This document shows, one piece after another, positions 28,383 through 55,233 of a DNA stretch of 64,000 nt. Each line of letters begins with the position of its first letter. Position 1 is the first letter of the stretch. Source of the DNA: an uncultured Pseudomonadota bacterium (GTDB lineage: Bacteria; SAR324; JACQKK01); the NCBI GenBank assembly GCA_964583525.1, contig CAZOXD010000001.1, positions 47,572-111,571 of the forward strand, given 5' to 3'. The notes under the pieces were generated by a model. That model ran no database searches, was not told the DNA's origin, and saw only the letters and a list, made by a program, of their open reading frames with translations. A program made the translations under genes and the position numbers.

Positions 28383-28389
28383 ATCGGGC

Positions 28390-31043: not shown

Positions 31044-31044
31044 G

Positions 31045-33248: not shown

Positions 33249-33249
33249 T

Positions 33250-33549: not shown

Positions 33550-33866
33550 GTCAGTCTCCGGTGGTTCGGTTGGGCGCTTCCATTGGCGCCGTTGCCTTTC
33601 GGCAGCGGATCACTCCTGCCCGCCATCAGCGCCCGGTCGTCGACCTGGAAGAGCTTTTTGCAGGTAAGGCATTCCAGATTGGTGAGCTTGGCCGCGCCGT
33701 GGCTGACCAGCCGGACATGGGCGCGGAAGGCCATCATCCCGCACCGGTCGCAGCGGATGAGCTTCTCCCCCGCGCTGGGCACGATGATCTGCGGCGTCAT
33801 CCGCAGCGGCGTCTTCTTCGACGGAATGATGAGCGGGCTCTTCCTGAGCCTGTTGCGTTTCGGCAT
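33546..33866 (-). CDS. Small zinc-finger-like protein (CxxC...CxxC)
   Basis: ...IRCDRCGMMAF...LECLTCKKLF... Confidence 0.4.
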   Translation of the reverse strand: MPKRNRLRKSPLIIPSKKTPLRMTPQIIVPSAGEKLIRCDRCGMMAFRAHVRLVSHGAAKLTNLECLTCKKLFQVDDRALMAGRSDPLPKGNGANGSAQPNHRRLT

Positions 33867-33879
33867 CCCTGCCTCCTCC

Positions 33880-35427
33880 TCAAGTCAACCCGGCATCGTA
33901 GCCGGCGTTCTCGGATTCGCCCCCGGCCACGGGGACGGCGATGCCCAGCAGCGAGTCGATCAGCCGCCAGGCGTTTTCGGCGGCGTCCGGGCCGTCCAGG
34001 TTGCCACGCTGGGGGAAGAACACGTGCTGATCCACAAGCCTGTCCTGGTCTGAATCGCCTTGGATGAAATGGACGGCGCCGCGCTCCCAGGCGGCGGTCA
34101 TGCGCATGATGCGCACGTCCTTGGGGATCAGGTTCACCACCTGTTGACCCAGGGCTTCCACGGGCAGCCCCCGCGCGGCGCGGGCCTGCTCCAACGGGAA
34201 CTCGAACAACTCCTGGAACCCGTTGGCCTCGTAACCGGAAACCCAGATCCAATGACCGCGCCCCATCACCGCCTCGACCTGGTTGAAGTACTCCGCCACC
34301 TGCTCGGTGGGGGAAGCCGTGCGCGAGAGGAACGCCTTCAGGCAGAAACGGTGTCCCAGTTCGGGATCGAGGGCCCAGGTTTCGATGGCCTTCCAGTCGC
34401 CGCCGCCCTGCTTGCGGGAGATGGCCGGATCCCAATAGACGGCGATCAGCAACGGGCGGTGCTCAAGCTGCTCGCGGCGGTAGTGGCGCACCCACTCGCG
34501 GCGGAAGGCGCTGTCCTTGTTGACCGCGATGAGGAGATATTCCAGGTTGAAGTCGTCCGGCTCGTCAGCCAGTTCCTCGCGCTTGGCGGCGATGAAGGCC
34601 GCGTCGAAGCGCACGGGATCGGTGGGGTTGCCGTCGCTGTCCGCGATGGGATGGATGAACTTGGCCCAGGCCTTGCTCTGGCTGCGTTCCAGGCGCGAGA
34701 TGGCGCAGTCCTCGGTCAGGCGGGTGCCGATGGCGATCAGCTTGTAGCCGGTCTTGCGCATGGCGGGGATGATCTTGCGGCGGATGTCGGTCAGGAGTTT
34801 GGTGATCGTGTCGGGATTGCGGGCGTCCTGGTCGTCCTGGAAGTCGTCCAGCTTCCACCTGTCCGGACGCCGGTTGTGAACAACGGAGCGCAGACCGCGC
34901 AGGCCGGAGGCCACCGAGTGACCCATCACCTCCGCGCCGTTGCGCAAGACAAAGTGGGAGCGCCCCCACACCGGGCCGAAGGCCAGATCGCCGTAGTCCT
35001 GGCGCAGGCGGGCGTTGGCCTCGAACTCAAGGCGCACCTGCAGCGTGGTGGGGTAGGTCTGGGGATCGGTCTTGGAGGTGAGCACGGTGAAGTCCGAATC
35101 GCCGGTGCACAGCTCGCGCACGGTCTCGGCGTAGGTTTCCCGGGTGGACTTGCCCCGGCCGCGGTGCTCCACGTCCAGCACCAGGCGCTTGGAATCGCGC
35201 ACCTCCGCCCAGCGGTCGTCGATTTCCGTGAACGGCTCGTCGAAGAGGTGCGGGAAGTAGTGCTTGAAGAACCAGAAGCGGTCGGCCTTGCCGCGCCGCT
35301 TGCGCTCCGCGATGGCCGCGTCCGAGCCGTCCGGCAGTTCGCTGGTGGCTTCGGCGATCAGGCGCCGGTGCTCGGCCTCCAGCTTGTCCAGCTCGCGGTT
35401 GAGCTGCCGGTCGGTGAGGTCAGGCAA
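33880..35427 (-). CDS. Terminase large subunit
   Basis: 515 aa; N-terminal ATPase-like region (LVLDVEHRGRGKSTRETYAETV) and C-terminal nuclease-like region; sits after TerS. Confidence 0.75.
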   Translation of the reverse strand: MPDLTDRQLNRELDKLEAEHRRLIAEATSELPDGSDAAIAERKRRGKADRFWFFKHYFPHLFDEPFTEIDDRWAEVRDSKRLVLDVEHRGRGKSTRETYAETVRELCTGDSDFTVLTSKTDPQTYPTTLQVRLEFEANARLRQDYGDLAFGPVWGRSHFVLRNGAEVMGHSVASGLRGLRSVVHNRRPDRWKLDDFQDDQDARNPDTITKLLTDIRRKIIPAMRKTGYKLIAIGTRLTEDCAISRLERSQSKAWAKFIHPIADSDGNPTDPVRFDAAFIAAKREELADEPDDFNLEYLLIAVNKDSAFRREWVRHYRREQLEHRPLLIAVYWDPAISRKQGGGDWKAIETWALDPELGHRFCLKAFLSRTASPTEQVAEYFNQVEAVMGRGHWIWVSGYEANGFQELFEFPLEQARAARGLPVEALGQQVVNLIPKDVRIMRMTAAWERGAVHFIQGDSDQDRLVDQHVFFPQRGNLDGPDAAENAWRLIDSLLGIAVPVAGGESENAGYDAGLT

Positions 35428-35647
35428 GAGGAATCTCCGTTACGCTGGTCTTGAGGTGAGCCTCCAAATACTCATGGAATTCCTTTGATCCGAGAAGATT
35501 GAAGACCGCCTCACGCACCGCGTGTGAAAACCCGGCAACGCCCTCCTGAAGGTTCGGCCCTATCAGGGCGCACCATTGATCCCCTTCTATAGAAACCTTG
35601 ATGTTGAATCCCAGTTTTTCCACCTGCTGTTCGCTGAGGTCAGCCAC
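35420..35647 (-). CDS. Small hypothetical protein
   Basis: 75 aa between TerS and TerL. Confidence 0.35.
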   Translation of the reverse strand: MADLSEQQVEKLGFNIKVSIEGDQWCALIGPNLQEGVAGFSHAVREAVFNLLGSKEFHEYLEAHLKTSVTEIPLA

Positions 35648-36110
35648 GCGAGATCTCCATGGTGAAAGCCTTGAGGTGCTCGGTCATCAGGGCGTGGGCC
35701 TCCGGGTTGACGCGCTTGAGGAAATCCATCAGCTCGCGGGTGTAGCGCAGGGCCAGGCGCTTGTAGTCGATGTCCTTTTGCAGCTTGCGCACGCGCTCGG
35801 CGGTTTCCAGCAATTGATTCAACTCCTTGCGGCGGTCGGTGATCCCCTCCAGGTTTTCCGGCTCCACCTTGTTCAGCGATTTCGCCAGGTTGTTGATCTG
35901 GCTCTGCACGGCGGCATAGATGCCGTGGTAGCCCCGGGCGGACTGCTTGCGCGCCTCGTCCCAGTCGAACCAGTCCCGCCAGCGGCGCAGGGTCGTCGGC
36001 GAGATTCCGCAGGCCGCGCAGATCTCCTTTTCGGAAGCCTGGGCCTGCACCCACATTTCCCCGGCGACCTGCCCCTGCCAGCTGTCACGCTTGATGGCCC
36101 GCTTGCTCAC
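35640..36110 (-). CDS. Terminase small subunit / HTH DNA-binding protein
   Basis: 156 aa with HTH (CAACGISPTTLRRWRDWF) directly upstream of TerL. Confidence 0.5.
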   Translation of the reverse strand: MSKRAIKRDSWQGQVAGEMWVQAQASEKEICAACGISPTTLRRWRDWFDWDEARKQSARGYHGIYAAVQSQINNLAKSLNKVEPENLEGITDRRKELNQLLETAERVRKLQKDIDYKRLALRYTRELMDFLKRVNPEAHALMTEHLKAFTMEISRG

Positions 36111-36221
36111 GCTAAAACCCCGTCCGAATGCCGTCCGAATGGCCCGTCAATCGCTTGGCCGGGCTCATGGCGGGCCACCCCGCGCATCCGGGCCGGATCG
36201 CCGCGCAGGGACGCGCTGCGC

Positions 36222-36686
36222 TCAATCCGCCGTCCCCGCTTTCAGGGAGACGCTGGGCGCGCTGTCCTTCATGTCGCCCAGACGGCGCAGGGTGGCGTCG
36301 TCCATATGGTTCTTGACTTCTTTCTGGATCGGCGACGCGCTGAACTTGAAGAAGTCCGCCAGATCCAGCCGCTCGTTTTCCTCCAGGAACTTGTGCAGCG
36401 CGGCCGAGTCGGTGAACTTGTCTTTTAGCGCGAAGGAGCGCCCGCCCAGGGTGACCGCGATCGCGCCGGCCGCGTTGAGCACGCTGTAGGTTTCATGGAG
36501 TCCGTGCTTCGCTTCCAGCGCCGGGCGCAGCCTCTCGAATCTTTCGATGACTTGCGCGCGCATCTCCCCCAGATTCTGCTGCGCTTTCACGTACTCCCCG
36601 GCGCACTGGAGCAGGCCCTCCAGTTCCTGGGTCTTCTTTTCGCCCATCTTGAGCGGCGTCTCCACGCTTCCCTGCTTGATTTTCAT
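36222..36686 (-). CDS. Hypothetical phage protein
   Basis: Internal start MKIKQGSVETPLKMGEKKTQ... Confidence 0.4.
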   Translation of the reverse strand: MKIKQGSVETPLKMGEKKTQELEGLLQCAGEYVKAQQNLGEMRAQVIERFERLRPALEAKHGLHETYSVLNAAGAIAVTLGGRSFALKDKFTDSAALHKFLEENERLDLADFFKFSASPIQKEVKNHMDDATLRRLGDMKDSAPSVSLKAGTAD

Positions 36687-36693
36687 CGGTTCC

Positions 36694-36936
36694 TCACGTT
36701 GTGATTTTCGAGGGTTCGGGTTGGGGCGGGGCTTGTTCGGGCCCACCCGGCTCTATTGGTCGGGCGCAGGTCACCATGGCGGCCGGGTAGATTCTCTCGC
36801 TCCAGGAAATCACCTCCATGGAATGAGAGAGGGTGGCCTGGGGATGAGAACGCTTGCACATTTTCTCCAGCGCCTCCGGCTCCGGCGCTCCCGTGAAGGC
36901 CGTCAACCAAATCGTCCAGATCAGGATCACGTCCAT
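36694..36936 (-). CDS. Small membrane protein with N-terminal TM segment (lysis-associated candidate)
   Basis: MDVILIWTIWLTAFTG...; fits exactly in the gap between neighbouring genes. Confidence 0.3.
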   Translation of the reverse strand: MDVILIWTIWLTAFTGAPEPEALEKMCKRSHPQATLSHSMEVISWSERIYPAAMVTCARPIEPGGPEQAPPQPEPSKITT

Positions 36937-36938
36937 TT

Positions 36939-37193
36939 CTACCCTCCCGTTCCCAGTAGTGATTTCAGCCAGCCCAGCGCCAGGGCCAGCGCCGCCCAGA
37001 ACATCGCGCCGATTGTCCAGATGATGATGGTCTTCTTCTCCAGCGAGCGCAGGCGCTGCTCGTGATCGGTGTCGATGCGGTCGGTGGATTCCTTGGCGGC
37101 CTTGGCGTAGGCCTTGGTTTCGGCCATGTCGGCAACCAACTGGCTCCAATCGCGCTGCGATACGTAAACCTGCTGGCCCTTGCTTACGCCCAT
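36939..37193 (-). CDS. Small protein with C-terminal TM segment (spanin-like/lysis accessory candidate)
   Basis: 84 aa, ...TIIIWTIGAMFWAALALALGWL..., immediately downstream of the endolysin. Confidence 0.4.
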   Translation of the reverse strand: MGVSKGQQVYVSQRDWSQLVADMAETKAYAKAAKESTDRIDTDHEQRLRSLEKKTIIIWTIGAMFWAALALALGWLKSLLGTGG

Positions 37194-37209
37194 CGCGGAA
37201 CCCTTCCGT

Positions 37210-37785
37210 TCAAAACCACGGCTTGAGGAAGCCCTTGATTTTCATCGAGGCCCAGGCCGGCGATTTGACGTAGCGGATCTTCTCGTAGACGCCGTCGCCC
37301 TCGCGCACCACGTGCTTGCCGGGGCCGGTGTTGCCCTCGACGGTGCCCATCTTCACGCCGCCCTCCAGGATTTCCGTGACGATGCCGACGTGCCCGCGCG
37401 AGGTGGCCCGGCCGTCCTTGTGGTATTGCCACAAGACCAGGCAGCCCGGCTCCGGCGCGGCGATGCGCGCCTTTTTGGGGGACTTGTTCCAGACGGTCAG
37501 CACGTGTTCGCTGGCATAAAGCCGCGCTTCGGGCGAGCCGCCGATGGCCAGGCCCAGCCTGTCCACCTGCTCGATGCAGAACCAGGCGAAGGACGCGCAC
37601 CACGGCTCGCCTTGGGCGCGGCCGTCCACGGCCTTTTGGAAACGCTCCACCGCCTGGCCGCGGTTGTCGCCGCCGCGCTCGGAGAAGCCGATCCATTCCC
37701 TGGCGAAGAAGATCAGCGCGTCGGGCTTGCGGTGATCGGGCAGCGCCACATCGAAGATGCCCGGATCCGGGATCGTCGGGGCCAA
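37210..37785 (-). CDS. CHAP-domain peptidoglycan hydrolase (endolysin)
   Basis: Catalytic Cys (EPWCASFAWFC) and His (GHVGIVTEI) motifs; downstream of the holin. Confidence 0.7.
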   Translation of the reverse strand: MAPTIPDPGIFDVALPDHRKPDALIFFAREWIGFSERGGDNRGQAVERFQKAVDGRAQGEPWCASFAWFCIEQVDRLGLAIGGSPEARLYASEHVLTVWNKSPKKARIAAPEPGCLVLWQYHKDGRATSRGHVGIVTEILEGGVKMGTVEGNTGPGKHVVREGDGVYEKIRYVKSPAWASMKIKGFLKPWF

Positions 37786-37788
37786 CGT

Positions 37789-37974
37789 TCAGCCCCGGTT
37801 CTTGCCTAAGTCCGCCAGGCCCTGGCCCAGCACGTAGGTTCCCAGCGGGCCGATGATCATCAGCACGGTTTCCAACGGGATCCCCCAGCCGAAGACGGCG
37901 TTGAGGGCGGGGACGGCCGCCGAGACAAAGGCGACGATCCACTTCTTGGATTTCCAGAAAGGTTTCTCGCTCAC
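37789..37974 (-). CDS. Holin-like small membrane protein
   Basis: 61 aa with two hydrophobic segments; first gene of the lysis cassette. Confidence 0.5.
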   Translation of the reverse strand: MSEKPFWKSKKWIVAFVSAAVPALNAVFGWGIPLETVLMIIGPLGTYVLGQGLADLGKNRG

Positions 37975-38009
37975 GTTTCCGCTCCTGGCGTTGGTTCGCT
38001 AGACGAACG

Positions 38010-38060
38010 GGGGCCATTATATATCCCCGCCCGGGAGGGATAAGCGTGAACGGCCAGCGT
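38010..38060 (-). promoter_or_regulatory. Candidate late promoter (TATAAT -10 box, weak -35) upstream of the holin gene, preceded by a near-palindrome tccccgcccgggaggga
   Basis: Read directly from the 220-nt intergenic region; activator-dependent late promoters typically lack a good -35. Confidence 0.3.
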
Positions 38061-38196
38061 GCGGAATTGAAGGGGGGTTGCGGGCTGCCGCGTCAAACGT
38101 GCGCGGGCGGTCTGTGCGGGAAGTGCGGGGCGCGGGACGCGCCGGAGAGAATTACACCCTAGCGGGGAGGGGGAGGGGTGTCAATGGGATGGGATT

Positions 38197-38643
38197 TCAA
38201 CCATAAGGTGTAAGGCCGCTCGCTGTTCTTGAAGACTGATTTTTACAGTGAGGGCAGGCCCAAATTAGATGCCCAAATGCTTGCAATTCAGAACTGTCTT
38301 TGTTCCGGGTTGGAGTCAATCTTATTGCCAGGTTGTGGGCATTCCAGCATGCGGAACAGTAGCGCCCTTCACTGGGATCCTCCTTGCCCTTGAGAAAATA
38401 GGAATGCTCCACGGGATCGAACTCCAGTTCCTCCTTGAGTTCCAGGGCACTTTCCAGGTCGCGGATTTTCTCCTCGGCTTCCACCAGTTGCACACGGATC
38501 TCAGCATAGTTAGAGATCACCTCGGCTAGGTGCGCCTGGAGTTCGGCGTTTTCGAGGGTCTTGGCAATATCCCTTGCGGCCTTGATCAACTCGTAGCTGG
38601 ATTTCACGGCCGCCAGGGCGCCGGTTATTTCCGCTATGGCCAT
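38197..38643 (-). CDS. Coiled-coil protein with C-terminal zinc ribbon (CxxC...CxxC)
   Basis: 148 aa; sits directly after the immunity gene. Confidence 0.45.
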   Translation of the reverse strand: MAIAEITGALAAVKSSYELIKAARDIAKTLENAELQAHLAEVISNYAEIRVQLVEAEEKIRDLESALELKEELEFDPVEHSYFLKGKEDPSEGRYCSACWNAHNLAIRLTPTRNKDSSELQAFGHLIWACPHCKNQSSRTASGLTPYG

Positions 38644-38659
38644 GGGTGTGCTCGCTTTT

Positions 38660-38986
38660 TCAGGTCAGAATTCCCAGGTAGAAAAGCAACGCGTAGATCG
38701 CCGCCAACAATCCCAGCGCCCCGGCCGTGATGAGGAGACGGCCCCCCGCCGTGAGGCCCTTGATCTGAAAAGGGGAGGGCTTGCCGGGGACGTGCTCGGG
38801 CCGGCCGGAAGTGTCCACCTTGGTTAGCGCCCAGATCAGCGCCACGGCCCAGCCGAGGAACGTCCAGCCCAGCAGCACATTCACCGCCACGATGGCCAGG
38901 GTTTGGTGATGGCGGCGGGAACCGGCGACGACCGAGGGCACGATGTAGAGCGCCAGGCCAAGGCCCGATAGTATGATCAGTTCCAT
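38660..38986 (-). CDS. Superinfection immunity protein (Sim/Imm family, PF14373-like)
   Basis: Motif LLGWTFLGWAVALIWAL typical of this family; adjacent to the repressor. Confidence 0.6.
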   Translation of the reverse strand: MELIILSGLGLALYIVPSVVAGSRRHHQTLAIVAVNVLLGWTFLGWAVALIWALTKVDTSGRPEHVPGKPSPFQIKGLTAGGRLLITAGALGLLAAIYALLFYLGILT

Positions 38987-38995
38987 GCTCCGCCC

Positions 38996-39439
38996 CTACT
39001 CTCCCGGCTCCTTGCCCCCGTTGGCCACCCCGTCATAGCCGAACGGCTCCGGCTTGGGTTCCTTCACTTTGGCCTCCGCCTCGGCCAGCTTGTATTTTCC
39101 CACCTGGTTCCGAAGTTTGATGTTTTCCTGCGTTAGCTTATCCAGGTGATCGTTGAGGCGGGAAATGTCGGCCTTGTATTCCTTGACGATCCCCAGCACC
39201 GCGCTTTCCTCCAGCATCGCACCCGGCCCGCTGAAGATATTCCCTTCCCCCGTCTCAAGCCAATGCCGCTCGATCTTGAACACGCAGCTGATGGCCGTGA
39301 GCAGGAGGGGTGAAGTGTTGCCGCCTTTGAGCAACCGGCTCACATGAGTCGGCGTGACCCCCAGCCTTTCAGCAAAAACATTCTGCCTTAATCCGAGTAC
39401 GGACAAAAGAATTTCCAGGCGTTTCGGGAAGTTTTTCAT
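38996..39439 (-). CDS. XRE-family HTH repressor (prophage c/CI-like)
   Basis: HTH LGLRQNVFAERLGVTPTHVSRLLKGG; divergent from the ner/cro-like gene. Confidence 0.7.
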   Translation of the reverse strand: MKNFPKRLEILLSVLGLRQNVFAERLGVTPTHVSRLLKGGNTSPLLLTAISCVFKIERHWLETGEGNIFSGPGAMLEESAVLGIVKEYKADISRLNDHLDKLTQENIKLRNQVGKYKLAEAEAKVKEPKPEPFGYDGVANGGKEPGE

Positions 39440-39566
39440 GATAAATTCGCTTCAGGTGATTTTACGCTTGACATAAATAACCTGAAGTCATTATTCTGTT
39501 CTTCCGTGACGGATCGGGAGTCGTTTTCATTCCCGGTTAATCTTCATACCTACCATTCGTAGAGCC
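39440..39566. promoter_or_regulatory. Divergent switch region with 8-bp inverted repeat cttcaggt...acctgaag (~22 bp apart) overlapping a TTGACA -35 element
   Basis: Read directly; candidate operator for the repressor/Ner. Confidence 0.4.
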
Positions 39567-39809
39567 ATGACCGAAAACAAAATCAGCCACATGGAACGCT
39601 CCCGGCGCATCCGCAAGCACAAGCTGCAGGCGCTGCTGGTGGAAAATGACATCGGCCTCTCCGAGATCGCCGCCGCCACCGGCCTGGAACGCGAAACGGT
39701 GCTCAAGGTGGTGGCCGGCCATCGCAACTCTCCCCTGGTCGCCGATTTCCTTTCCGGCCGCCTCGGGCCTCCTTTCGAGCGGATCTGGTATGAGGCCCCC
39801 GCAGCGTAG
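39567..39809 (+). CDS. Ner-like (Mu Ner/Nlp family) DNA-binding protein, cro analogue
   Basis: 80 aa; ...ERETVLKVVAGHRNSPLVADFLSGRLGPPFERIWYEAPA resembles the Ner C-terminal consensus (PWVIWPSRY). Confidence 0.65.
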   Translation: MTENKISHMERSRRIRKHKLQALLVENDIGLSEIAAATGLERETVLKVVAGHRNSPLVADFLSGRLGPPFERIWYEAPAA

Positions 39810-39891
39810 ATCGCAGCGCGGGACACAGGGGCGCGTCTACCCTTCCTGACGCGTCTCACTCGGGAAGCATCACCGATCGCAGGGGGCCGGC

Positions 39892-40923
39892 ATGAACGGG
39901 AAATTCGGAAGAACCATCACCATCGCCGTACCGCTCATCATCCTCAGCCTGGGGATGTACATTCTCCAGTTCCACGCCATCGCATTCTGGACGGGGCGCT
40001 TCGGCGTCCTCACCGGCTGGGCCGTCTCCCTCACCCTGGAGGGCGGCGCGCTCTGGCTGTGGTGGAAGCCCCGGGCGGGGTGGCGCTTCCTGGGCGGAAT
40101 CGCCACCCTCGTCCTGCTGGCCGGGCCGCTCTACGTGACCGGCCAGCCGTTGCTGGAGGAAATGGCGGAAGGGGATTCCCGGGGAAAACGGCTTTTGGCG
40201 TTGGAGGCGCGGATCGCCACCCTGGGCGCGGAGAAGACCGGGCTGCTGGAGGTGATCGTCGGGCAGCAGCGGCGGGGCTGGCAGGGTCTGCTGGAGGATG
40301 TGAACGGGAAGCTGGACTCCGCCGCGGATGAACGCTCCCGGCTGCTGCTGCCCGCGGCCCGGATGGACTGGGAGGCGCGGGGTCTGATCGCCATGAACCT
40401 GGCCGCGCTGGCGCTGGCCCAGGCCTTCAACGTGCTGGCGATCCTCTTCCTCTCCACGGCTTTCCGTACCGGTACAGTACCGGTTCGGAATACCGGTACA
40501 GCCGATTCCGAACCAGCGGTACAACCCAGGTACTCCGCGGCTTCGCCACCTGTACCACCTGTACCGGTACAACCCGCGGTTTCATTACCGCACCCCGCCC
40601 CCGAACCTGCGCGAGCGCCCCCTGCCGCGCCGGTTCACCCCGGAGCGCCCGGCCTTGGCGATAGGCCGGGCCGCTCCCTTTCCGCCGATTTCTGCAAGCC
40701 CGACTTGTTCACCCTGCGCCGCCTCCAGGATGCGGTTTCCAAACAGGTGGAAAGCCTGGGCGGGGTCAATAAATTCTGCGCCCGGCACCAGGTCAACAAG
40801 CCGGATTATTCCAAGCTGATGCAACACGAGGAGCGCGTGAAAAACGGGGGCGATCTGATCAGCCTGCGCAAGTTCAACGAGTGGCGGGAGAAGTTCCTGC
40901 CCGAAAACGTCAAGGAGGCGTAA
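39892..40923 (+). CDS. Membrane protein (3-4 TM) with Pro-rich linker and C-terminal soluble domain; hypothetical
   Basis: 343-aa ORF from the track. Confidence 0.5.
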   Translation: MNGKFGRTITIAVPLIILSLGMYILQFHAIAFWTGRFGVLTGWAVSLTLEGGALWLWWKPRAGWRFLGGIATLVLLAGPLYVTGQPLLEEMAEGDSRGKRLLALEARIATLGAEKTGLLEVIVGQQRRGWQGLLEDVNGKLDSAADERSRLLLPAARMDWEARGLIAMNLAALALAQAFNVLAILFLSTAFRTGTVPVRNTGTADSEPAVQPRYSAASPPVPPVPVQPAVSLPHPAPEPARAPPAAPVHPGAPGLGDRPGRSLSADFCKPDLFTLRRLQDAVSKQVESLGGVNKFCARHQVNKPDYSKLMQHEERVKNGGDLISLRKFNEWREKFLPENVKEA

Positions 40924-40926
40924 ACC

Positions 40927-41457
40927 ATGAGCGAGAATCCCATGCAATTGAATACAACCCGCTTCGGAACTATCGGGATCAATGACGGCCAGATGCTGAC
41001 TTTCGGAGACGGATTGCTAGGTTTCCCCGAACACACCCGTTACGCATTGATTGAGGCCGAGATCGGCGATCCCTTCCTGTTGTTGAGATCGTTGGTCGAT
41101 AAGTCCGTCAGATTCCTGGTGATCGAACCATCGCATTTCTTCCCCTCCTACTATTTCACGGTAAAGAAGGCGCAGATCAAGGCATTGGATACCGACGATG
41201 TCGATGATCTCCAGGTGCTCGTCCTAGTGACCATAGCCCCCAACATCCTGGACGTTACCGCCAATCTGCTGGGGCCGATCGTCTTCAACAAGAAAAACCG
41301 CATCGGCATGCAGATATTGCTCGACGATTTCAATTTAAGCACTCGGGAGCCTCTCTTCAATGACCGGCCGGATAACGAGGCCGAAGCAGTCGGCATGGTG
41401 ACTCGGGAAAACCGCACAGCCTCCGCGCGCGCAGCCATCCACGGTCTGGAGGCCTAG
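40927..41457 (+). CDS. fliW: FliW-like protein (flagellar assembly factor / CsrA antagonist family) with a ~30-aa C-terminal extension
   Basis: TRFGTIGINDGQMLTFGDGLLGFPEH..LIE......FLLLRSLVDKSVRFLVIEPSHFFPSYYF...LVLVTIAPNI..VTANLLGPIVFN follows the FliW consensus along the whole core. Confidence 0.7.
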   Translation: MSENPMQLNTTRFGTIGINDGQMLTFGDGLLGFPEHTRYALIEAEIGDPFLLLRSLVDKSVRFLVIEPSHFFPSYYFTVKKAQIKALDTDDVDDLQVLVLVTIAPNILDVTANLLGPIVFNKKNRIGMQILLDDFNLSTREPLFNDRPDNEAEAVGMVTRENRTASARAAIHGLEA

Positions 41458-41460
41458 CCG

Positions 41461-41742
41461 ATGAGCGCCAGGCAAAAGTGCTGCCACGTCTGCGCGAGCC
41501 ATTGCTTCATGATTTACGAGAGCGGCGGGGATCTCTTTCTGCGCTGCGCCAATTGCCACGTGGTGCAGGAGAGGCAGCCCAGGCAGGCCCCGGCCGGAAC
41601 GCTCGTGCCCATCGAGGACGCCGCCAACCTGAACTGGCTGCCCATGCCCGCGCGCACCGAACGTCTGCTGACGGCCGCGTTCGAGACGGCCAGCGAGCAG
41701 TTGGACGATTACTTCCAATCCCATCCGGAGAAGCTGACGTGA
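41461..41742 (+). CDS. Small zinc-finger protein (CCHVC...CANCH)
   Basis: 93 aa. Confidence 0.45.
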   Translation: MSARQKCCHVCASHCFMIYESGGDLFLRCANCHVVQERQPRQAPAGTLVPIEDAANLNWLPMPARTERLLTAAFETASEQLDDYFQSHPEKLT

Positions 41743-42335
41743 GCATCGGCGACGGACGCCACAAGCTGGCCACGCGGGAGGAACGCGAGATTCACGGCGC
41801 GATCCTGCGGGAAACCCGCGCCCTGTGCGAGCGCTGGGCCGCGCGGCGGCTGGCGGATATCGAGGAGGCCGAGGGGATCGCGGTCAACAAGACCGTGGCC
41901 CTGGACGAGCTGGCCGAAGCCCTGGGCATGAGCCGCCGCCAGCTCTCCGCTTACGGTTCTGACGTGCCCATCACCCTCGCCAAGGCCGTGCGGCTCTCCC
42001 AGGTCTCCGGCGATCCGGCCCTGCTGCACCTGTTCGCCCGCTACCTGGGGGCGCTGGCCGTGCGCATTCCCCGCCCGGAAGAGATCGCAGGCCTGGCCGA
42101 AGTCAACGCCGAACTGTTCGCCAACTCGAAGGAGGCCGTCGAGTTCCAGGGCGCGGCCCTGGCCATGGGCGGGGAGGAATACGGCCCGGACGATCACGCC
42201 ATCACCAGCAAGGAGGGCCTGGAGGACATGGAGCAGTCCGTGCGCCTGATCCTGGCGTCTTCCCTGAAAGCCACCGGCAAGGCCGAACTCCCCGCCGCGC
42301 TGCACCTGACCCGATCCAATGGAGGAAACCAATGA
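41739..42335 (+). CDS. HTH-containing phage regulatory protein (hypothetical)
   Basis: GTG start overlapping the previous stop (GTGA); ...KTVALDELAEALGMSRRQLSAYG... HTH. Confidence 0.45.
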   Translation: MSIGDGRHKLATREEREIHGAILRETRALCERWAARRLADIEEAEGIAVNKTVALDELAEALGMSRRQLSAYGSDVPITLAKAVRLSQVSGDPALLHLFARYLGALAVRIPRPEEIAGLAEVNAELFANSKEAVEFQGAALAMGGEEYGPDDHAITSKEGLEDMEQSVRLILASSLKATGKAELPAALHLTRSNGGNQ

Positions 42336-43555
42336 ACAACCCTGAATCCCTCGTCCCCGCGCTGTACAAAGCGCCGGACGCAGATCACGCCGCCAAGCTG
42401 CTGGAAAGCCTGGAACTGGAGGAACTCAAACCCATCGCCCGCGAGGTGTGCGGGATGCGCCGTTTTAACGGCAAGGCCACCGCCGAGGGACTGCGCTTCA
42501 ACATCCTCCGCCAACTGGAAGCCCGCGCCGCCAGCGTGGTCACGCCGGTGACCATCGGGGACACCATCACCGACGCCGACTCGGGCGAGGAAGTGATCAT
42601 CTCCGAGGACTTCCAGGCCCAGGTGATGGAGATCAACCACCGCCTGATGCAGGCCCAGTTCTCGATCCAGAAAGGGATGGTGGATGTCTGCCGGGCCGTC
42701 AAGGATTTCCGGGACGCCAAGGGCTACCTGCTCTCCGGCTATCACTCCTTCAAGGCCTATTGCGACGCGGGCGAACTGCGGGTGATGGGGGAAACCAAGT
42801 CCCGCGCCTGGGCCTACAACATGATCGCCTTCATCGAAAAGCTGGGGGGGAAGGTTGTCCAACGCGCTGGACAACTTCCGCAACGCGACCTTCTCCGTTT
42901 GACCATGATCCTGGGAGAGCCGGGGATGGAGGACACCCTGGAAGAACTGCAATCCAAGGGGCGGCTCCGCTACATCGGGGACGATGGCCAGGAGGTGGTG
43001 CTGCAGCTCCCCAAGAGCGCCGAGGACACCGAGGGTTGGAAGACCTACCTGGAATTCGCCGAGCGGGAACGCCGCCGCAACCGGCGCCAGGTCAACGAGC
43101 TGTCCGACGAGATGCTGCTGGCCCGCGAAGAGCACGAGAAGGAAATCCAGGCTCTGCGGGATCGCATCGCGGAACTGGAAGGGCGCACGGACGAGGAGAT
43201 CGCCGCGCTGCTGGAAAAAGAGGAACTCACCCCGCAAGAGGCGGCCACGCTCAAGAACGATCTGCGCAACATCCGGGCGGATCGCGCCTCCCTGGAATCC
43301 CGCAACGGCGATCTCAGCGAACGGCTGGAACGCTACCACCGCGAGGGCGTGGACATGGGCGGCCTGGAGAAGGTGCGCAAGACCTGCGCCGAGTTCCGCG
43401 GCAAGGTTTCCGATGCCATCGAACTGATCTCCCCGCTGCTGCCCCATGCCGGCGACCTGAGCGATCTGGCCGTGCAGGAAATCCTGGAGGCCATCTACGG
43501 CGAAAACAACAAGCTGGGCGTTCTCTCCAGCCGCTTCGACGAGGCCGGAGAATGA
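42332..43555 (+). CDS. Hypothetical early protein with C-terminal coiled coil
   Basis: 407-aa ORF; ATGA-type overlaps on both sides. Confidence 0.55.
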   Translation: MNNPESLVPALYKAPDADHAAKLLESLELEELKPIAREVCGMRRFNGKATAEGLRFNILRQLEARAASVVTPVTIGDTITDADSGEEVIISEDFQAQVMEINHRLMQAQFSIQKGMVDVCRAVKDFRDAKGYLLSGYHSFKAYCDAGELRVMGETKSRAWAYNMIAFIEKLGGKVVQRAGQLPQRDLLRLTMILGEPGMEDTLEELQSKGRLRYIGDDGQEVVLQLPKSAEDTEGWKTYLEFAERERRRNRRQVNELSDEMLLAREEHEKEIQALRDRIAELEGRTDEEIAALLEKEELTPQEAATLKNDLRNIRADRASLESRNGDLSERLERYHREGVDMGGLEKVRKTCAEFRGKVSDAIELISPLLPHAGDLSDLAVQEILEAIYGENNKLGVLSSRFDEAGE

Positions 43556-43818
43556 GTCCAGAGCGCACATTCGATGAATTGAAGGAATTGAAACACCGCA
43601 ACATGGTGTGGGGATACCTTATTTTGGATGGGAAGCAGCATGCCAGCGTCTGGTGTCATTCCGGGCAGAGGCAGGTGATTGACGATTCGGATATCGGAGC
43701 AGACGGCGCCGCTCATTTTAAATGCAAATGCACATACGACATTGAATGCGGCCTCGAGGGAACGATCCTGCTCCATGGCTGGGATCCCGGGCACATCAAC
43801 GGGGGACGGGCCGCATGA
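43552..43818 (+). CDS. Small hypothetical protein (lower GC)
   Basis: 88 aa by manual translation, MSPERTFDELKELKHRNMVWGYLILDGKQHASVW... Confidence 0.4.
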   Translation: MSPERTFDELKELKHRNMVWGYLILDGKQHASVWCHSGQRQVIDDSDIGADGAAHFKCKCTYDIECGLEGTILLHGWDPGHINGGRAA

Positions 43819-44186
43819 CCGATCAAAAATACATCGGATTTCTCGAATCCAGGAACGCCTGTTTGCACACGACCGTTGTGCGCCTACTGGCTGTCATGGA
43901 GAAAAGCGGAGCTGGCGATATCCATTGGATAAAAACCGGAGAAAGAATTCAGGAAACCGCCGCACAAGGAACCTCTGAAGCCACAGCCGAACGATTTATC
44001 AAGTGTTTTGGTGAGATGTCGGAAGTGACAGATGCCGCAAAGGCGTTTCTAACAACCGGAACGCCGGAGACAAAGAGCGCATTGCAAAAAAAACTGGCGA
44101 TATATGAACGGGGAGAAAACCGCCGCACCCGCAATATTCAGGCCTTGGCTAAGAAAGGCGAACCCTGGTGGGACGCGAAGCCATGA
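43815..44186 (+). CDS. Small hypothetical protein
   Basis: Internal start MTDQKYIGFLESRNA... Confidence 0.4.
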   Translation: MTDQKYIGFLESRNACLHTTVVRLLAVMEKSGAGDIHWIKTGERIQETAAQGTSEATAERFIKCFGEMSEVTDAAKAFLTTGTPETKSALQKKLAIYERGENRRTRNIQALAKKGEPWWDAKP

Positions 44187-45838
44187 CCGACCCTATCCAC
44201 ACCCTCTATCTGGACACCCTGGGCGCGGACAAGGCCGCCCGCAAGGCCGCCGTCGCGGAGACCGCCGCGCGGCTGGGCCTCCAGTCCGACACTGTGCGCA
44301 AGAAGCTGGACAAACTGGGCCGCGCCCGCTCAGAGCCCCGCGCGCGCGCAACCGATCCCGAGTTGGAAGCAGCCGTAAATATCGTGTGGGAATTCAAGCT
44401 GACCCCGGACGGGCCCATCGCCACCGAAGCCGCGCTGCAACTGGCGATCAGCGAGGGCAGGCTGTTCAAGGCCTGGCCGGTGGGTTCCCTCAACGCCGCC
44501 GCCAAGCGGCTCGGCCTGAGCGAACAGGCCGCCTACTGCCGGCGCATGGAAGCTCCCCACGCCAACCGCACCCACCGCGTGGACGCTTCCGGTTCGCGTC
44601 ACTTCCAGGTAGTGGAGGATGCCGGGGACGGGGACTGGCTGCTCCGGGTCTGCCGGGCCGAGCAGCGCAACAAGCGCTGGCGCGGGGAGGATGCCAGCAA
44701 CCTGCTCTGGATCGTGACGGTCATCGACGACTATTCGCGCGTTTTCAACGTGGGCTACCAGGTGGCTCCGGGGGAAAGCGCGGCCATGATCCAACGCTTC
44801 CTGGTGGAAACCTGGCGCGACGCCCAGCCGCGCGGCCTGCCCGAGGTGCTGATCGCGGACAACGGATCGTTCGCCAAGGAGACCTCCTCCAAGGCGCTGC
44901 TGGCCTTCTTCGACATCCAACTGATCACCGGCCAGCCCTACAATTCCCAGCGCAACGGGCGGGTGGAGCGGCCCATCCGCACCATCAAGGAGGGCTTCGA
45001 GCGCCCCATGCTGGCCACCCATGACCTGGGATCGATCGTGCGGCTCTCGCAACTCAAGGAAGAGTTGAAGGTTTTCATCGCAGGAGTGAACGGGAGCCGC
45101 CATCCCATCAGGCGCGACCGCACAAAGCGCGAGGACTGGGAGCGCGGGATGGCCTTCCGAGAGTTGCGCGAGTGCCCCCAGGACGCGCTCCACTACGCCA
45201 CCTGGCGCGAGCAGCGCACCGTCACGGCCGAGGGCGCCGTCCAGCACAAGAACAAGCTGCTGGAAATCGTGGATCTCCCCTACGGTCTGCGCGGCCGCAA
45301 GATTACGCTCTGTTACAACGCCTCCGGAGAAATCATCGCCGAGCACGAGGGCGCGCGCTACGCCGTGCGCGGCTTTGTCCCGGTGACCCTGGGCGGCTAC
45401 GAGAGCCAAGCCCATACCGGGCGCGGCGATCCGCCCTCCAAAGCCGCCGCCGCCAAGGCCGAGGCCCGCCAGAAGACGGGCGTGGGCTTCCATGCGCCGG
45501 AGCGCCAAGCCGCCATCAAAGCGGCCGGCGAGCAGCCCCATGCCCCGGGCGAGCAGGCGCTCCCCGGCGCGGGCGCGCGGGTGATTACACCGCCGCCGCG
45601 CATCCGGGACGCGGTGCAGGTAATATCCGGCAAAACCGATCCCTTCCAGATCGCGTCCGACCGCTACAAAACCGTGGACGAGGCCGTCGCGGCGGTGCAG
45701 GAAATCGTCGGCAAGCCCAGCCACGTCTGGCTCAACAAGGAGCAGCGCCAAACGCTGGAGAAGATTCTGCGCGGCTTCGATCTGGATCGCCGCAAAACCG
45801 CCGCGCTGGCCGATCGACTGCGCCAGCAAAGCGCGTGA
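44183..45838 (+). CDS. Mu-like DDE transposase (MuA/rve-family integrase core)
   Basis: ...WIVTVIDDYSRVFNVGYQVAPGES...VLIADNGSFAKE...GQPYNSQRNGRVERPIRTIK... DDE triad with N-terminal DNA-binding region. Confidence 0.8.
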   Translation: MTDPIHTLYLDTLGADKAARKAAVAETAARLGLQSDTVRKKLDKLGRARSEPRARATDPELEAAVNIVWEFKLTPDGPIATEAALQLAISEGRLFKAWPVGSLNAAAKRLGLSEQAAYCRRMEAPHANRTHRVDASGSRHFQVVEDAGDGDWLLRVCRAEQRNKRWRGEDASNLLWIVTVIDDYSRVFNVGYQVAPGESAAMIQRFLVETWRDAQPRGLPEVLIADNGSFAKETSSKALLAFFDIQLITGQPYNSQRNGRVERPIRTIKEGFERPMLATHDLGSIVRLSQLKEELKVFIAGVNGSRHPIRRDRTKREDWERGMAFRELRECPQDALHYATWREQRTVTAEGAVQHKNKLLEIVDLPYGLRGRKITLCYNASGEIIAEHEGARYAVRGFVPVTLGGYESQAHTGRGDPPSKAAAAKAEARQKTGVGFHAPERQAAIKAAGEQPHAPGEQALPGAGARVITPPPRIRDAVQVISGKTDPFQIASDRYKTVDEAVAAVQEIVGKPSHVWLNKEQRQTLEKILRGFDLDRRKTAALADRLRQQSA

Positions 45839-45850
45839 GAGGGCAGAGAA

Positions 45851-46030
45851 ATGAAACACCTGTTGAAAAAACGGACACCGATTCACATAAAGCATCTCCG
45901 AGCTGCCGCCAAAGCGTTCGAGGAAATGATCGATCTTGGGGAGGAATTCCGGGGATCGGGGACAGACAGTGATCAGCGGTACCGCCTGATGAAAGAGCTC
46001 AGGGAATTCGCGGCTTGGCTTGAGGGATGA
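45851..46030 (+). CDS. Small hypothetical protein (59 aa)
   Basis: Manual ORF MKHLLKKRTPIHIKHLRAAAKAFEEMIDLGEEF...; below the track size cutoff. Confidence 0.35.
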   Translation: MKHLLKKRTPIHIKHLRAAAKAFEEMIDLGEEFRGSGTDSDQRYRLMKELREFAAWLEG

Positions 46031-46050
46031 TTGAACGGAGAGAGCAACCC

Positions 46051-46167
46051 ATGATCTTCACTATCATCGTGCTGGCCGGGTTTCTCGCGGCCGGAATCGT
46101 CCTGGGCTGGCTGGTGAAACACGCCGTCAAAGCCACGGTGGAAATCTTCTCGCAGTTCAACCGCTGA
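46051..46167 (+). CDS. Small membrane peptide (38 aa)
   Basis: MIFTIIVLAGFLAAGIVLGWLVKH...; GGAGAGAG RBS. Confidence 0.35.
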   Translation: MIFTIIVLAGFLAAGIVLGWLVKHAVKATVEIFSQFNR

Positions 46168-46188
46168 AACCAGGGAAAGGAGAAAGCG

Positions 46189-46362
46189 ATGCGCGCATTG
46201 ATCTTGATCGAGGACGACGGCAAGGGCGGGGTCAACCTGGAAATAGGGGTCACCACTATCGACTATGACCCCGAAAGCCCCGCGCTGCTGGTGCACCGCG
46301 AACTGGTGGATCGGGCCTTGGAACTGACATCCAAACCCAAACCGGGAAAGGAGCAGGGATGA
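46189..46362 (+). CDS. Small hypothetical protein (57 aa)
   Basis: MRALILIEDDGKGGVNLEIGVTT...; strong RBS GGAAAGGAGAAAG; ATGA overlap with the next gene. Confidence 0.4.
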   Translation: MRALILIEDDGKGGVNLEIGVTTIDYDPESPALLVHRELVDRALELTSKPKPGKEQG

Positions 46363-46811
46363 GTATTCCAAGCGAACATTTTGAAAATGCTTTTCGCGGC
46401 GGCGGCGGGATCAGGGCCGAATGTGATTTTTGTGGGCGAGTCCATTTTACAACGCTTCCATTCGCAGGGGATTGGGAGGAAGGAGAATTTGAAAGCCTCA
46501 TTGAAAGAGCAGAAAACAACCCCGATCAATACATCGCAGAAGGCCGATACGATTCAATAACATATGGAACCCTGGCGGGGCGCACCTATGTTCTTGATTG
46601 CCCATGCGTCGAGGAAAAGGTGCTCCCTTATGAGAACTTCATTTGGAACTACAGGCACCAGATTCTTTCCTACCACCAAATGAGAACGAAGTCGGAGCGA
46701 GATGAAGCCGAGCGTAACCATGAAGAGGTGAGCGACCAATACAAACCTTGGTGTGCCCCAACAACCCGCCAACAGGAAATAAACAGAGCCAGATCAAGGA
46801 TGCTCTCATGA
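46359..46811 (+). CDS. Cys-containing hypothetical protein (lower GC)
   Basis: 150-aa ORF; CDFCGRVHF...LDCPC. Confidence 0.45.
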   Translation: MSIPSEHFENAFRGGGGIRAECDFCGRVHFTTLPFAGDWEEGEFESLIERAENNPDQYIAEGRYDSITYGTLAGRTYVLDCPCVEEKVLPYENFIWNYRHQILSYHQMRTKSERDEAERNHEEVSDQYKPWCAPTTRQQEINRARSRMLS

Positions 46812-47746
46812 CCCCCACCAAGCCCGAAATGCTGGAGTTCCTGGGGCTGGCCCGGGATCCCTTCGCCAAGCTGCGCGAGGCGGGGGACGTCTGGCCAAGC
46901 GTGACGTTGCGCTCGGCGCGGCACCTGGTGGACTACGCGCTCTCGCATTCCGAAATGGTGGCCATGCTGGGGGGCTTCGGGGTGGGCAAGACCACCCTCC
47001 TCCACGCCGCCCTGGAGTCGGTCGAGCAAGGGCCCGGAGAAACCATCGCCATTCACGTGGCTGGCTCCAAGGACACCCTGCGCATCTCGGCCGTGGTGGA
47101 GGAGATGCTGCGCGGGCTGGGCAACGACCGCCTCCCGCAGAGCGAGACCGCCCGCCGCCGGATGCTGAAAGCGGCGCTGGTGGGCGCCTTCGGCCAAGAC
47201 AAGCGGATCGTGCTGGTGATCGACGAGGCCCACCGCATGAAGGGCATCACGCTGAAAGCGCTCAAGGAACTCCACGAGCAGAGCCGCCACGCCTGGCGCG
47301 AGGCGACCTTCGCCATTCTGCTGGCCGGGCACCGGCAACTGACCGCCCTGGCCCATTTCGAGGCGCGGGACTTCCTGGCGCGGCTGGAGTCCCACAACAT
47401 TCTGCACCTGAGCGCCCTCAGCGCCGGGGAAGCCGCCATGTACATCTGCCACCGGCTGGACGCCGCGGGCGCTCCGCAACTGCTGGAGATGGACACGCTG
47501 GAACTCCTGGCGCGGCGCGGGACGCCGCTGGAGATCAACCGCACCATGTGGCGGATCTTCGAGGCGGCGTACCTGAAGAACGTGAAACCGATCACGCCGG
47601 AGCTGGTGCGGGCCGTGCTGCCCACGCCCCCGGCCCCGCCGGACGCAAGCGCCGGAAACATCGACGACCTATTGAAGGGTCTGAGCGAACCGAACGGAGG
47701 CAGGGATGCCGCAAGCAGCAACATCAGAACCGCCCATGGTGAGTGA
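46808..47746 (+). CDS. MuB-like AAA+ ATPase (transposition target DNA activator), paralog 1
   Basis: Walker A GGFGVGKTT, Walker B VLVIDEAH; conserved N-terminus (MLEFLGL..DPF..L, DYALSHSEMVA). Confidence 0.7.
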   Translation: MTPTKPEMLEFLGLARDPFAKLREAGDVWPSVTLRSARHLVDYALSHSEMVAMLGGFGVGKTTLLHAALESVEQGPGETIAIHVAGSKDTLRISAVVEEMLRGLGNDRLPQSETARRRMLKAALVGAFGQDKRIVLVIDEAHRMKGITLKALKELHEQSRHAWREATFAILLAGHRQLTALAHFEARDFLARLESHNILHLSALSAGEAAMYICHRLDAAGAPQLLEMDTLELLARRGTPLEINRTMWRIFEAAYLKNVKPITPELVRAVLPTPPAPPDASAGNIDDLLKGLSEPNGGRDAASSNIRTAHGE

Positions 47747-47975
47747 GGCGGAATCGATTTTGGACGACGTGCGGGAGCTTCTGGCGATGATCCCGGAGAT
47801 GGAAGCCACGCGGAAGGTATTCGGCAAAAGGCTGGCGGACACCCTGGAGAAGATGCGCGTCTTCAACCACCAACACGCGGCGCACCTCCCGCCCGGCACG
47901 GTGCGGCTGCTGGAAGACATCTACGGCCAGGTGGAATCCTACGCCGGGGTGATCAAGCGCGAGTTGCGCCAATGA
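47706..47975 (+). CDS. Small hypothetical protein
   Basis: 89 aa; GGAGG RBS; overlaps the end of MuB paralog 1. Confidence 0.35.
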   Translation: MPQAATSEPPMVSEAESILDDVRELLAMIPEMEATRKVFGKRLADTLEKMRVFNHQHAAHLPPGTVRLLEDIYGQVESYAGVIKRELRQ

Positions 47976-48219
47976 TTGCCGGAGCGCTCCCGGCCGGGCT
48001 GATTAAACCCCGGCGCCCGCGGGAGGAGCGGCGCGTGTTTGCCAACGGCACGTCATATCCAGCCGCTCCTGGGCGCCGGAATAGGAATCGCCCGCGGGAC
48101 TCATAACCCCGCAAAGGGCCTGCGGTTTCTGTTGATTGCCGGAGGCCTCCGGTTCGACTCCGGGGCCCGGGCGGGAGCGCACTTTTTCCAACGCTGGATG
48201 AGCAACGAGGAGACACCTC

Positions 48220-49245
48220 ATGAACCCACTAATGCCGGAAATCCTGGAGCACTTCGGACTGGAGCGCAACCCGTTCGGGAAGCTGGCCGGTGATGGGGAA
48301 TTCTACGCCTCGCCGGAATTCCGCAGAGCCTACGCCACGGTGGACTACGCGCTCTCGCATTCCGAAATGGTGGCCATCGTGGGGGACGTGGGCTCGGGCA
48401 AGTCCGAGGCCATGGTGGCCGTGAAGGAGCATCTCAAGGCGCGGCCCGAAGCCCCGGTGAACTTCATCGAGGTGCTGCACCCGGACAAGGGGACGATGAA
48501 GATCGGCTCGGTGCTCGAAGCCTTCATCCAGATGCTGGAGATCGCGCGGCCCGGGCAATCCCAGCAGCGGCGGGCCTGGCACGTCAAGTTCGCAATCCAG
48601 GAGCGCTGGCGCCAGGGCGAGCGCTTCATTCTGATCATCGACGAGGCGCACCGGCTCAGCGGGCCGTTCCTGAAATCGCTCAAGGAGTTGCACGAGCAGA
48701 CCCGCTTCGGCCACATGGCAGCCCTGATCGGGATCGTGCTGCTGGGGCACGAGAGCCTGCTGAGCAATTACCAAAAGGTGGCGTCGGACGTGTACCAGCG
48801 CCTGGACGCCGGGCACGTCTGCACGATGGGGAGCATGACCCCGCTGGAAATCGATGAATACATCGCGCATCGGGTTGCGGCGGTCAACGGGAACGGCCTG
48901 TTCGACGGCGAGGCCCGCCGCGCGGTGGGGCGGCTGGCGTCATCGCCGTTGGGCGCGAACCGCATCTGCGCCAAGCTGCTGGCCACGGCCTACACGCGCG
49001 GCCAGGACGCCGTGACCCTGGAGGAAGTCTACGCCGCCTACGACCGCCGCGCTTTGGCCGACCTGCTGGGGCTGAGCGCTCCGGCCATCGCCGGGCGGGC
49101 CGGGATCGGCCGCAGCACGGTGCACGACGTGTTCGATGGGCGCGGCAAGGGGAGCGCCGCCAAGGTGGATGCCGTGTTGCGTGAGGCCATGAGCGCGGCC
49201 GGGCAGCAGGAAGCGGATCGGCAATCAGAAGCGAAGGAGGCGTGA
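48220..49245 (+). CDS. MuB-like AAA+ ATPase, paralog 2
   Basis: Walker A GDVGSGKSE, Walker B ILIIDEAH; same conserved N-terminal motifs as paralog 1 (ILEHFGLERNPF, DYALSHSEMVA). Confidence 0.7.
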   Translation: MNPLMPEILEHFGLERNPFGKLAGDGEFYASPEFRRAYATVDYALSHSEMVAIVGDVGSGKSEAMVAVKEHLKARPEAPVNFIEVLHPDKGTMKIGSVLEAFIQMLEIARPGQSQQRRAWHVKFAIQERWRQGERFILIIDEAHRLSGPFLKSLKELHEQTRFGHMAALIGIVLLGHESLLSNYQKVASDVYQRLDAGHVCTMGSMTPLEIDEYIAHRVAAVNGNGLFDGEARRAVGRLASSPLGANRICAKLLATAYTRGQDAVTLEEVYAAYDRRALADLLGLSAPAIAGRAGIGRSTVHDVFDGRGKGSAAKVDAVLREAMSAAGQQEADRQSEAKEA

Positions 49246-49246
49246 G

Positions 49247-51532: not shown

Positions 51533-51652
51533 AAGCCTTCCGTGGCTAGAGGTGAATTCATTTTCACTGCAATAAGGGTCTCAAACAACTATTTTTTTGT
51601 CAACGCCGGAGTGCCGGTGATGGAGCAGTAAACCCCAACCAAGGATGATGCG

Positions 51653-55232: not shown

Positions 55233-55233
55233 C

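Follow-up and report, generated by a model that had tools for sequence, protein, structure and literature searches.

The question raised by this locus is what a homolog of the flagellar assembly factor FliW does in the early region of a transposable phage. CsrA is among the most widespread bacterial post-transcriptional regulators, and FliW is its ancestral protein antagonist. To our knowledge, FliW has so far been known from chromosomes alone, as a gene linked to flagellar assembly, and our full-text searches of the literature gave no report of a phage or prophage FliW or of a phage-encoded CsrA antagonist. The homolog studied here occupies positions 40927..41457 (plus strand) of a 64,000-nucleotide stretch of metagenomic DNA, which was analysed as a whole and is called the window below. 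The gene encodes 176 aa, with an ATG start and a TAG stop. An in-frame alternative start at M6 (40942) corresponds to the start position of the FliWs of the SAR324 cluster.

A first-pass annotation, made from the DNA letters without database searches, described the product as a full-length FliW-like protein and proposed a Pfam search as a check. This search backs the assignment; the annotation had named a lack of profile support for the FliW fold as its refutation, and this did not occur. The FliW profile PF02623 scores 117.6 bits against a gathering cutoff of 25, and the whole of it (positions 1-122 of 122) is aligned to ORF residues 24-143, with about 30 residues left beyond the domain. With phmmer, the three solved FliW sequences are recovered from the PDB, 5dmb_A being at the top (E = 1.1e-19). 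The predicted fold agrees. An AlphaFold2 model made from an alignment of 22 sequences reaches a mean pLDDT of 80.8 and exceeds 90 across most of residues 21-140. Its Foldseek comparison with 5DMB_A, which is FliW in its complex with CsrA, gives a TM score of 0.90 and an rmsd of 2.0 Å at 31% identity. The top six Foldseek matches are all FliW (target-normalised TM 0.82-0.91), and the next one, a non-FliW protein, has E = 0.36. The residues Y75, N113, P117 and Q129 and the TANLxxP motif, invariant in a 50-sequence alignment of the family, are all kept. The ORF product is a genuine FliW-fold protein in both family and fold.

Within the family the protein stands apart. Eight of the NCBIfam FliW models (NF009790-NF009801) match it, the best scoring 119.2 bits where the cutoff is 223, and all the equivalog cutoffs are missed, the closest at 112.8 against 130. 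Judged by these profiles, it is a FliW-family member outside every curated NCBIfam equivalog subgroup. An exhaustive HMMER search returned 3,396 FliW-like cluster representatives at E <= 0.001, and the phage FliW is a singleton in its 50% cluster. We note separately that tandem double-FliW proteins of 260-326 aa exist (P0215-P0217, P0223, P0229, P0230, P0233, P0240 and P0324).

The C-terminal extension pointed out in the first-pass annotation is present, with about 30 residues, but it is not specific to the phage, since the SAR324 FliWs have it. It corresponds to residues ~151-176 (41377..41454, plus strand) and is predicted, with low confidence, as a helix (DSSP residues 151-175, pLDDT 41-62 in the AlphaFold2 model). 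Over residues 148-174, 12-15 of 26 positions (46-58%) are identical to those of the SAR324 FliWs, i.e. the same level as in the core (50-58%). The extension is common to SAR324 FliWs and is therefore a trait of the clade rather than a phage addition. As chromosomal SAR324 FliWs carry the same extension, a phage innovation is ruled out.

The surroundings of fliW are those of a transposable prophage, which spans approximately 12400..56500. The minus strand carries its late and structural genes (12986-38986), the plus strand its early genes (39567-56127), and the two arms diverge from a central switch. PHROG matches on the minus strand identify the large terminase (33880..35427), the portal (28390..30777), the major capsid protein (25576-26538) and the tape-measure protein (16370..18352); a head protease, a CHAP endolysin and a minor tail match were also found there with PHROG and Pfam. 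The plus strand carries a Mu-type DDE transposase of the rve type (44183..45838; phrog_310, 8.7e-21; PF00665) and two genes for MuB-like AAA_22 ATPases (46808..47746 and 48220..49245; phrog_296, DNA transposition protein). Thus, both the rve transposase with a MuB-like ATPase beside a divergent repressor/Cro-type switch and the head and tail module of a tailed phage are present, as in a Mu-like element.

Genes of the host, an uncultured anaerobic bacterium, flank the prophage on both sides. To the left lie an aldehyde:ferredoxin oxidoreductase (AFOR) and a PFOR-like 2-oxoacid oxidoreductase; to the right, an OmpA/Pal-like lipoprotein, a TPR protein, a polysaccharide deacetylase, an adenylate cyclase and a thiolase. 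For the PFOR-like protein, the best matches that bear a name are at 66-69% and are labelled just 'bacterium' or 'Deltaproteobacteria bacterium'. The two end regions (12465-12496 and 56201-56232) form an imperfect inverted repeat of 32 bp, and the candidate termini TGCCAAA (12490) and TTTGGCA (56207) are within it. A 5-bp target duplication, sought at the prophage ends with 5'-TG...CA-3' termini, was not found, and a comparison with an empty site through the PFOR locus of a relative gave no conserved synteny. Three assemblies of the sample have breaks at 12363, 12417 and 12457, beside the left prophage end. The window comes from a metagenome assembly and two other assemblies are interrupted at the left junction of host and prophage, as might be expected if a fragment of a host fliW had been mis-joined into a phage contig. 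Nevertheless, we regard such an artefact as very improbable. The independent ENA assembly of the same sample contains a scaffold, scaffold_269, that matches the window without a difference over 20,531 bp with fliW at the centre, and fliW has phage genes on both sides, each 3 nt away and within one frame-packed operon.

The early arm begins at the switch. On its minus-strand side is an HTH_3 repressor (38996..39439; Pfam HTH_3, 30.2 bits; phrog_2328 transcriptional repressor, 1.4e-11), divergent from the early operon. Directly after it, on the same strand, a superinfection-immunity protein, Imm_superinfect (PF14373, 38660-38986), is encoded, which is presumably expressed in the lysogen. The first early gene (39567..39809, plus strand) encodes an 80-aa HTH protein analogous to Cro/Ner, with weak PHROG HTH matches. 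It has no match to a Ner-family Pfam profile; its sole Pfam match is a weak one to PF21716 (dnstrm_HI1420, E = 0.049), and its homolog in one of the related phages described below (L012) is HTH_31. This protein is Cro/Ner-like by position only. The second gene, p343 (39892..40923, plus strand), encodes 343 aa with a membrane N-terminus and without Pfam or PHROG matches, and it is directly 5' of fliW. Hence, of the first-pass placement of fliW directly downstream of the Ner-like gene, the early region stands and the adjacency does not: p343 is in between, and fliW is the third gene. The operon continues on the plus strand with p93 (41461..41742), a CxxC...CxxC protein directly 3' of fliW, then a Phage_CP76 (CII-like) regulator (41739..42335; Pfam, 28.2 bits) and a conserved 407-aa coiled-coil early protein, p407 (42332..43555).

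The gene is tightly fitted into this operon. The p343 stop codon (40921-40923) is separated from the fliW ATG by 3 nt, and the same gap of 3 nt follows the fliW stop before p93. A Shine-Dalgarno sequence AAGGAGG (40912..40918, plus strand) lies within the end of p343, 8 nt 5' of the fliW ATG. A candidate early promoter, TTGACA-18-TATTCT (39468..39497, plus strand), is a sigma-70-like site by consensus match alone and the sole such site in 39300-44300; a candidate operator, a 13-nt inverted repeat at 39450..39487, overlaps its -35 hexamer. Around 40927-41457 we found no promoter-like and no plus-strand terminator-like site. A self-contained moron is thereby ruled out: the gene has neither promoter nor terminator of its own and only 3 nt to each neighbour. 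For the same reasons fliW would be made with the early operon, with which it appears from this layout to be co-transcribed, and in the lysogen it is presumably silent, as we infer from the operon layout.

Synteny with related phages, together with the PHROG and Pfam profiles, supports the phage early-region setting that the first-pass annotation had proposed. The transposase has ten database matches, itself included, and four contigs with relatives of 45-52% identity (L010-L013) were inspected, one of which belongs to a Candidatus Glassbacteria MAG. With tblastn, a shared order was seen: the repressor, followed by the small HTH gene, p343, (p93), CP76, p407, the transposase, MuB1, MuB2, MarR, p165 and HTH_17. 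Homologs of p343 and CP76 occur in all four; those of the repressor in L011 and L012, the small HTH gene at the same position in L011-L013, and p93 in L010 and L013. L011 also has Portal_Mu and Mu Gam. The MuB-like AAA_22 paralogs, one small gene apart, are both kept in 4/4 relatives; phages of this group thus seem to employ a transposition ATPase in duplicate. In IMG/VR, no close relatives of the transposase were confirmed. FliW gave no tblastn match in any of the four related phages. In L010 the p343 homolog (2..637) even overlaps the p93 homolog (634..927), and the slot of fliW is empty.

Where did the gene come from? A search of 5.8 billion proteins recovered the identical protein only as itself, on three contigs of one source. 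The next matches are 25 proteins of 167-168 aa with 51-57% identity, and those of them that are named are FliWs of the SAR324 cluster; the SAR324 matches cover 95% of the length. In a neighbour-joining tree the phage FliW is sister to the SAR324 group. In the six SAR324 contigs inspected (for P0017 and P0003) fliW is directly 3' of csrA, and the longer contigs have a flgK-flgL-csrA-fliW flagellar operon. The composition of the gene is also unusual for the prophage. Its GC of 0.540 is the minimum among prophage genes (mean 0.636, sd 0.031) and its GC3 is 0.718 versus 0.837 for the prophage. Both values are inside the range of the flanking host genes and near those of the SAR324 fliW (0.556 and 0.746). 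Because it is missing from four related phages, with an empty slot in L010, and has the lowest GC, fliW is a captured host gene. These sequence comparisons indicate that its origin is foreign and that the Mu-like phage took it from a SAR324-type csrA-fliW flagellar locus.

A captured gene may also be a recent passenger, gained by illegitimate recombination and without a selected function for the phage. The composition, still host-like and un-ameliorated, fits this explanation, as do the singleton status of the protein and its absence from the four relatives and from every phage catalogue searched. We consider it unlikely, however. The protein is 43-49% divergent from the nearest FliWs, yet it retains an intact ORF, all the family-invariant residues and the C-terminal appendage, and the 3-nt spacers and the consensus Shine-Dalgarno sequence fit fliW into the operon. 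Headful-packaged Mu-like genomes, moreover, have scant space for useless DNA. A fast-evolving or decaying copy was ruled out, as the phage FliW is nearer to 43 outgroup FliWs (mean identity 35.2%) than the SAR324 FliWs are (31.5-32%). With its intact ORF, strong Shine-Dalgarno sequence and an extension conserved as well as the core, the phage fliW gives no sign, at the sequence level, of decay or relaxed constraint.

The chromosomal linkage of the gene has been lost. tblastn with three CsrA queries and with the flagellin-family protein FlgL found neither csrA nor flagellin in the 64-kb window (best E = 0.19), in agreement with the first-pass observation that no such gene is nearby. Among the other FliW contexts that were opened, csrA is adjacent to fliW in 8/8. 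The gene is also rare on mobile elements. The phage FliW has no match among the PHROG families, no close relatives of it were found in GTDB genomes or IMG/VR, and an exact 41-mer of fliW is absent from the GTDB species representatives. Three scans of IMG/VR confirmed no FliW, where the two alignment-based ones used a single motif each, so that divergent FliWs could escape them. Against 50,697 phage records tblastn gave two matches, gut contigs filed as 'UNVERIFIED: Bacteriophage sp.' (MT836588.1, 3546-5810, and MT836129.1, 4702-6973; our L006 and L007). Both have flgL, fliW and csrA in a row, and with flgL and csrA adjoining fliW they were rejected as examples of a phage FliW; they look like fragments of bacterial flagellar operons filed as phage. 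Thus, no genuine FliW was found among PHROGs, the 50,697 phage records and IMG/VR. In PLSDB (72,556 plasmid records) there were three matches, on replicons of 0.41, 2.6 and 2.7 Mb, and they were rejected as small mobile plasmids on the grounds of replicon size.

We then consider whether the phage FliW could still recognise CsrA. In a B. subtilis screen, FliW residues P26, F58, N108, A111 and Q124 were required for the binding of CsrA around N55, and A122 and K123 for its allosteric inhibition (bioRxiv 10.1101/2020.07.02.184341). These positions were transferred to the phage protein through the 5DMB alignment. F58 is conserved as F63, and N108 and Q124 correspond to N113 and Q129, both invariant in 50 FliWs. 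A111 is conservatively replaced by G116, the family consensus. P26 corresponds to L31, the usual state in this branch and the one that most proteobacterial-type FliWs have. Hence, four of the five residues of the N55-proximal set are conserved or conservative. In the allosteric pair, A122 corresponds to G127, again the family consensus, and K123 to M128, which is not conserved; SAR324 FliWs have T here, and other FliWs vary. In B. subtilis, the core-proximal K123 makes a salt bridge to CsrA D41 that antagonism requires; the phage protein has no such residue, and SAR324 CsrA has S41. With T at the K123 position and S41 in their CsrA, the salt bridge is therefore not a trait of the SAR324 clade. 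A change specific to the phage protein is R54, which is Q in 18 of 22 aligned FliWs. The CsrA adjoining the closest SAR324 FliW has 77 aa, N55 and a C-terminal extension. By these sequence features it is of the FliW-regulated type; it represents the partner in the donor clade, not one seen in the phage's own host.

The same residues bear on another explanation, in which the FliW fold has been redeployed onto a new partner, either a phage protein or some other host protein with a CsrA-like C-terminal peptide. The loss of the csrA linkage would fit, together with the substitutions that the phage protein alone has at positions conserved or relevant to function (Q to R54, and M128) and the scores under all NCBIfam equivalog cutoffs. 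We find this quite unlikely, since the CsrA-contact cluster is kept and the SAR324 relatives lie farther from the family consensus than the phage FliW does. The window has no CsrA-like ORF, and p343 and p93 occur without fliW in related phages and so are not dedicated partners.

We suggest that the phage FliW acts as a CsrA antagonist expressed early, a role that we favour with a probability of roughly 0.45. The phage context and the conserved contact residues are observed; the timing of expression, the binding to CsrA and the benefit to the phage we infer, and from a single instance. The first-pass suggestion that a phage copy could sequester host CsrA is thus plausible on the sequence. Against the CsrA model count M128 at the K123 position, R54, the sub-cutoff NCBIfam scores and the singleton status of the protein.

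With infection or prophage induction, FliW would be produced together with the early operon. It would bind to the C-terminal extension of a FliW-type CsrA of the host and thereby inactivate it. The flagellin-FliW-CsrA circuit runs near 1:1:1 stoichiometry (PMC6529632; PMC6070490). Because of this balance, surplus FliW would lower the amount of free CsrA, either by direct binding or by displacing host FliW from flagellin. The translation repressed by CsrA would then be released as lytic growth begins. The released targets might include flagellin, other host mRNAs and possibly those mRNAs of the phage in which a GGA-rich ribosome-binding site looks like a CsrA site. In its strongest form, the proposal is that the stolen FliW is a dedicated anti-CsrA protein that switches off a global translational repressor of the host in the first minutes of lytic growth; this we put forward tentatively.

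FliW binds not only CsrA but also flagellin (PMC6070490), and the phage protein might instead be directed at the latter, retaining new flagellin in the cytoplasm or misdelivering it and so altering the flagellum, with consequences, for instance, for flagellotropic superinfection or for the motility of the infected cell. Phages do remodel host flagella by other means, e.g. with TldR-FliC_P (bioRxiv 10.1101/2025.07.22.666180), and the conserved, clade-specific C-terminal extension could make a lineage-specific flagellin contact. On the other hand, flagellin-bound FliW does not stop the FliS/FlhA-dependent export (PMC6070490). Surplus FliW should increase the synthesis of flagellin, not decrease it, lysogens would not be protected by an operon that should be off in them, and the window is without a flagellin gene or a flagellin-targeting element. 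A flagellin-directed role seems doubtful to us. The idea of the first-pass annotation that the phage suppresses a receptor was the weaker half of its functional proposal. It fits the circuit poorly, because more FliW should raise flagellin and because no expression of the operon is expected in a lysogen.

It is useful to compare the phage FliW, as the putative CsrA antagonist, with known systems. The SAR324 chromosomal FliW (P0017; GCA_022566195.1, JADFJL010000003.1) is like the phage copy in its length class and extension. However, it adjoins csrA in a flagellar locus, whereas the phage copy, controlled as a phage early gene, has neither csrA nor a flagellar gene beside it; the phage protein has the motif TANLLGP in place of TVNLQGP, and R54 and M128 are the states of the phage protein. 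The FliWs of B. subtilis and Geobacillus thermodenitrificans (5DMB, 5DMD, 5JAK) share the fold and the N55-proximal cluster (F58, N108, A/G111, Q124) with it. The phage protein differs from them in about 30 extra C-terminal residues, M for K123 and L for P26, and their genes form a fliW-csrA operon, unlike the phage copy in its phage early operon.

Of published ideas, two come nearest: CsrA paralogs on prophages or ICEs, and the flagellar remodelling by phage TldR-FliC_P. Prophage- and ICE-borne CsrA/Rsm paralogs are reportedly found in Pseudomonas, where, likewise, a part of the network on a mobile element could rewire the post-transcriptional control of the host. However, the Pseudomonas elements add an RNA-binding repressor, whereas the phage carries a protein antagonist, with the opposite effect on CsrA activity. 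CesT, a type III secretion chaperone of enteropathogenic E. coli, antagonises CsrA (cited in PMC7366521). It is likewise a protein antagonist of CsrA from a horizontally acquired element, but it has an unrelated fold and another binding mode and belongs to a pathogenicity island rather than to a phage lytic programme. With TldR-FliC_P, which carries out phage flagellar remodelling (bioRxiv 10.1101/2025.07.22.666180; PMC10705468), a temperate phage likewise interferes with the expression of host flagellin. That system is transcriptional, RNA-guided, expressed in the lysogen and equipped with its own flagellin, while the phage FliW would act post-transcriptionally, as a protein, early in the lytic cycle and without a flagellin gene.

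If the CsrA-antagonist role is true, this FliW would be the first protein antagonist of CsrA from a virus, and it would show for the first time that phages target the FliW-CsrA partner switch. CsrA would then join the global regulators that are neutralised by phages. A FliW under phage control would show that a single captured gene suffices for viruses to seize the switch. Also, a natural FliW uncoupled from csrA would help to study the control of the switch beyond flagellin.

Several further features of the prophage were seen in the course of the analysis. Together with L010-L013, it makes up a Mu-like phage family of uncultured sediment bacteria with a common early backbone. Within its head/tail block lies a gene (21684-24767, minus strand) for a fusion protein of 1027 aa that joins a GT4 glycosyltransferase to a SAM methyltransferase and a GT2 glycosyltransferase, which is an unusual cargo for a structural module. 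A second major-capsid-like gene (51653-52660, plus strand; phrog_1005, 1.3e-21, profile 103-314), without a Pfam match, is located in the early, right arm; the real capsid gene lies far away, at 25576-26538.
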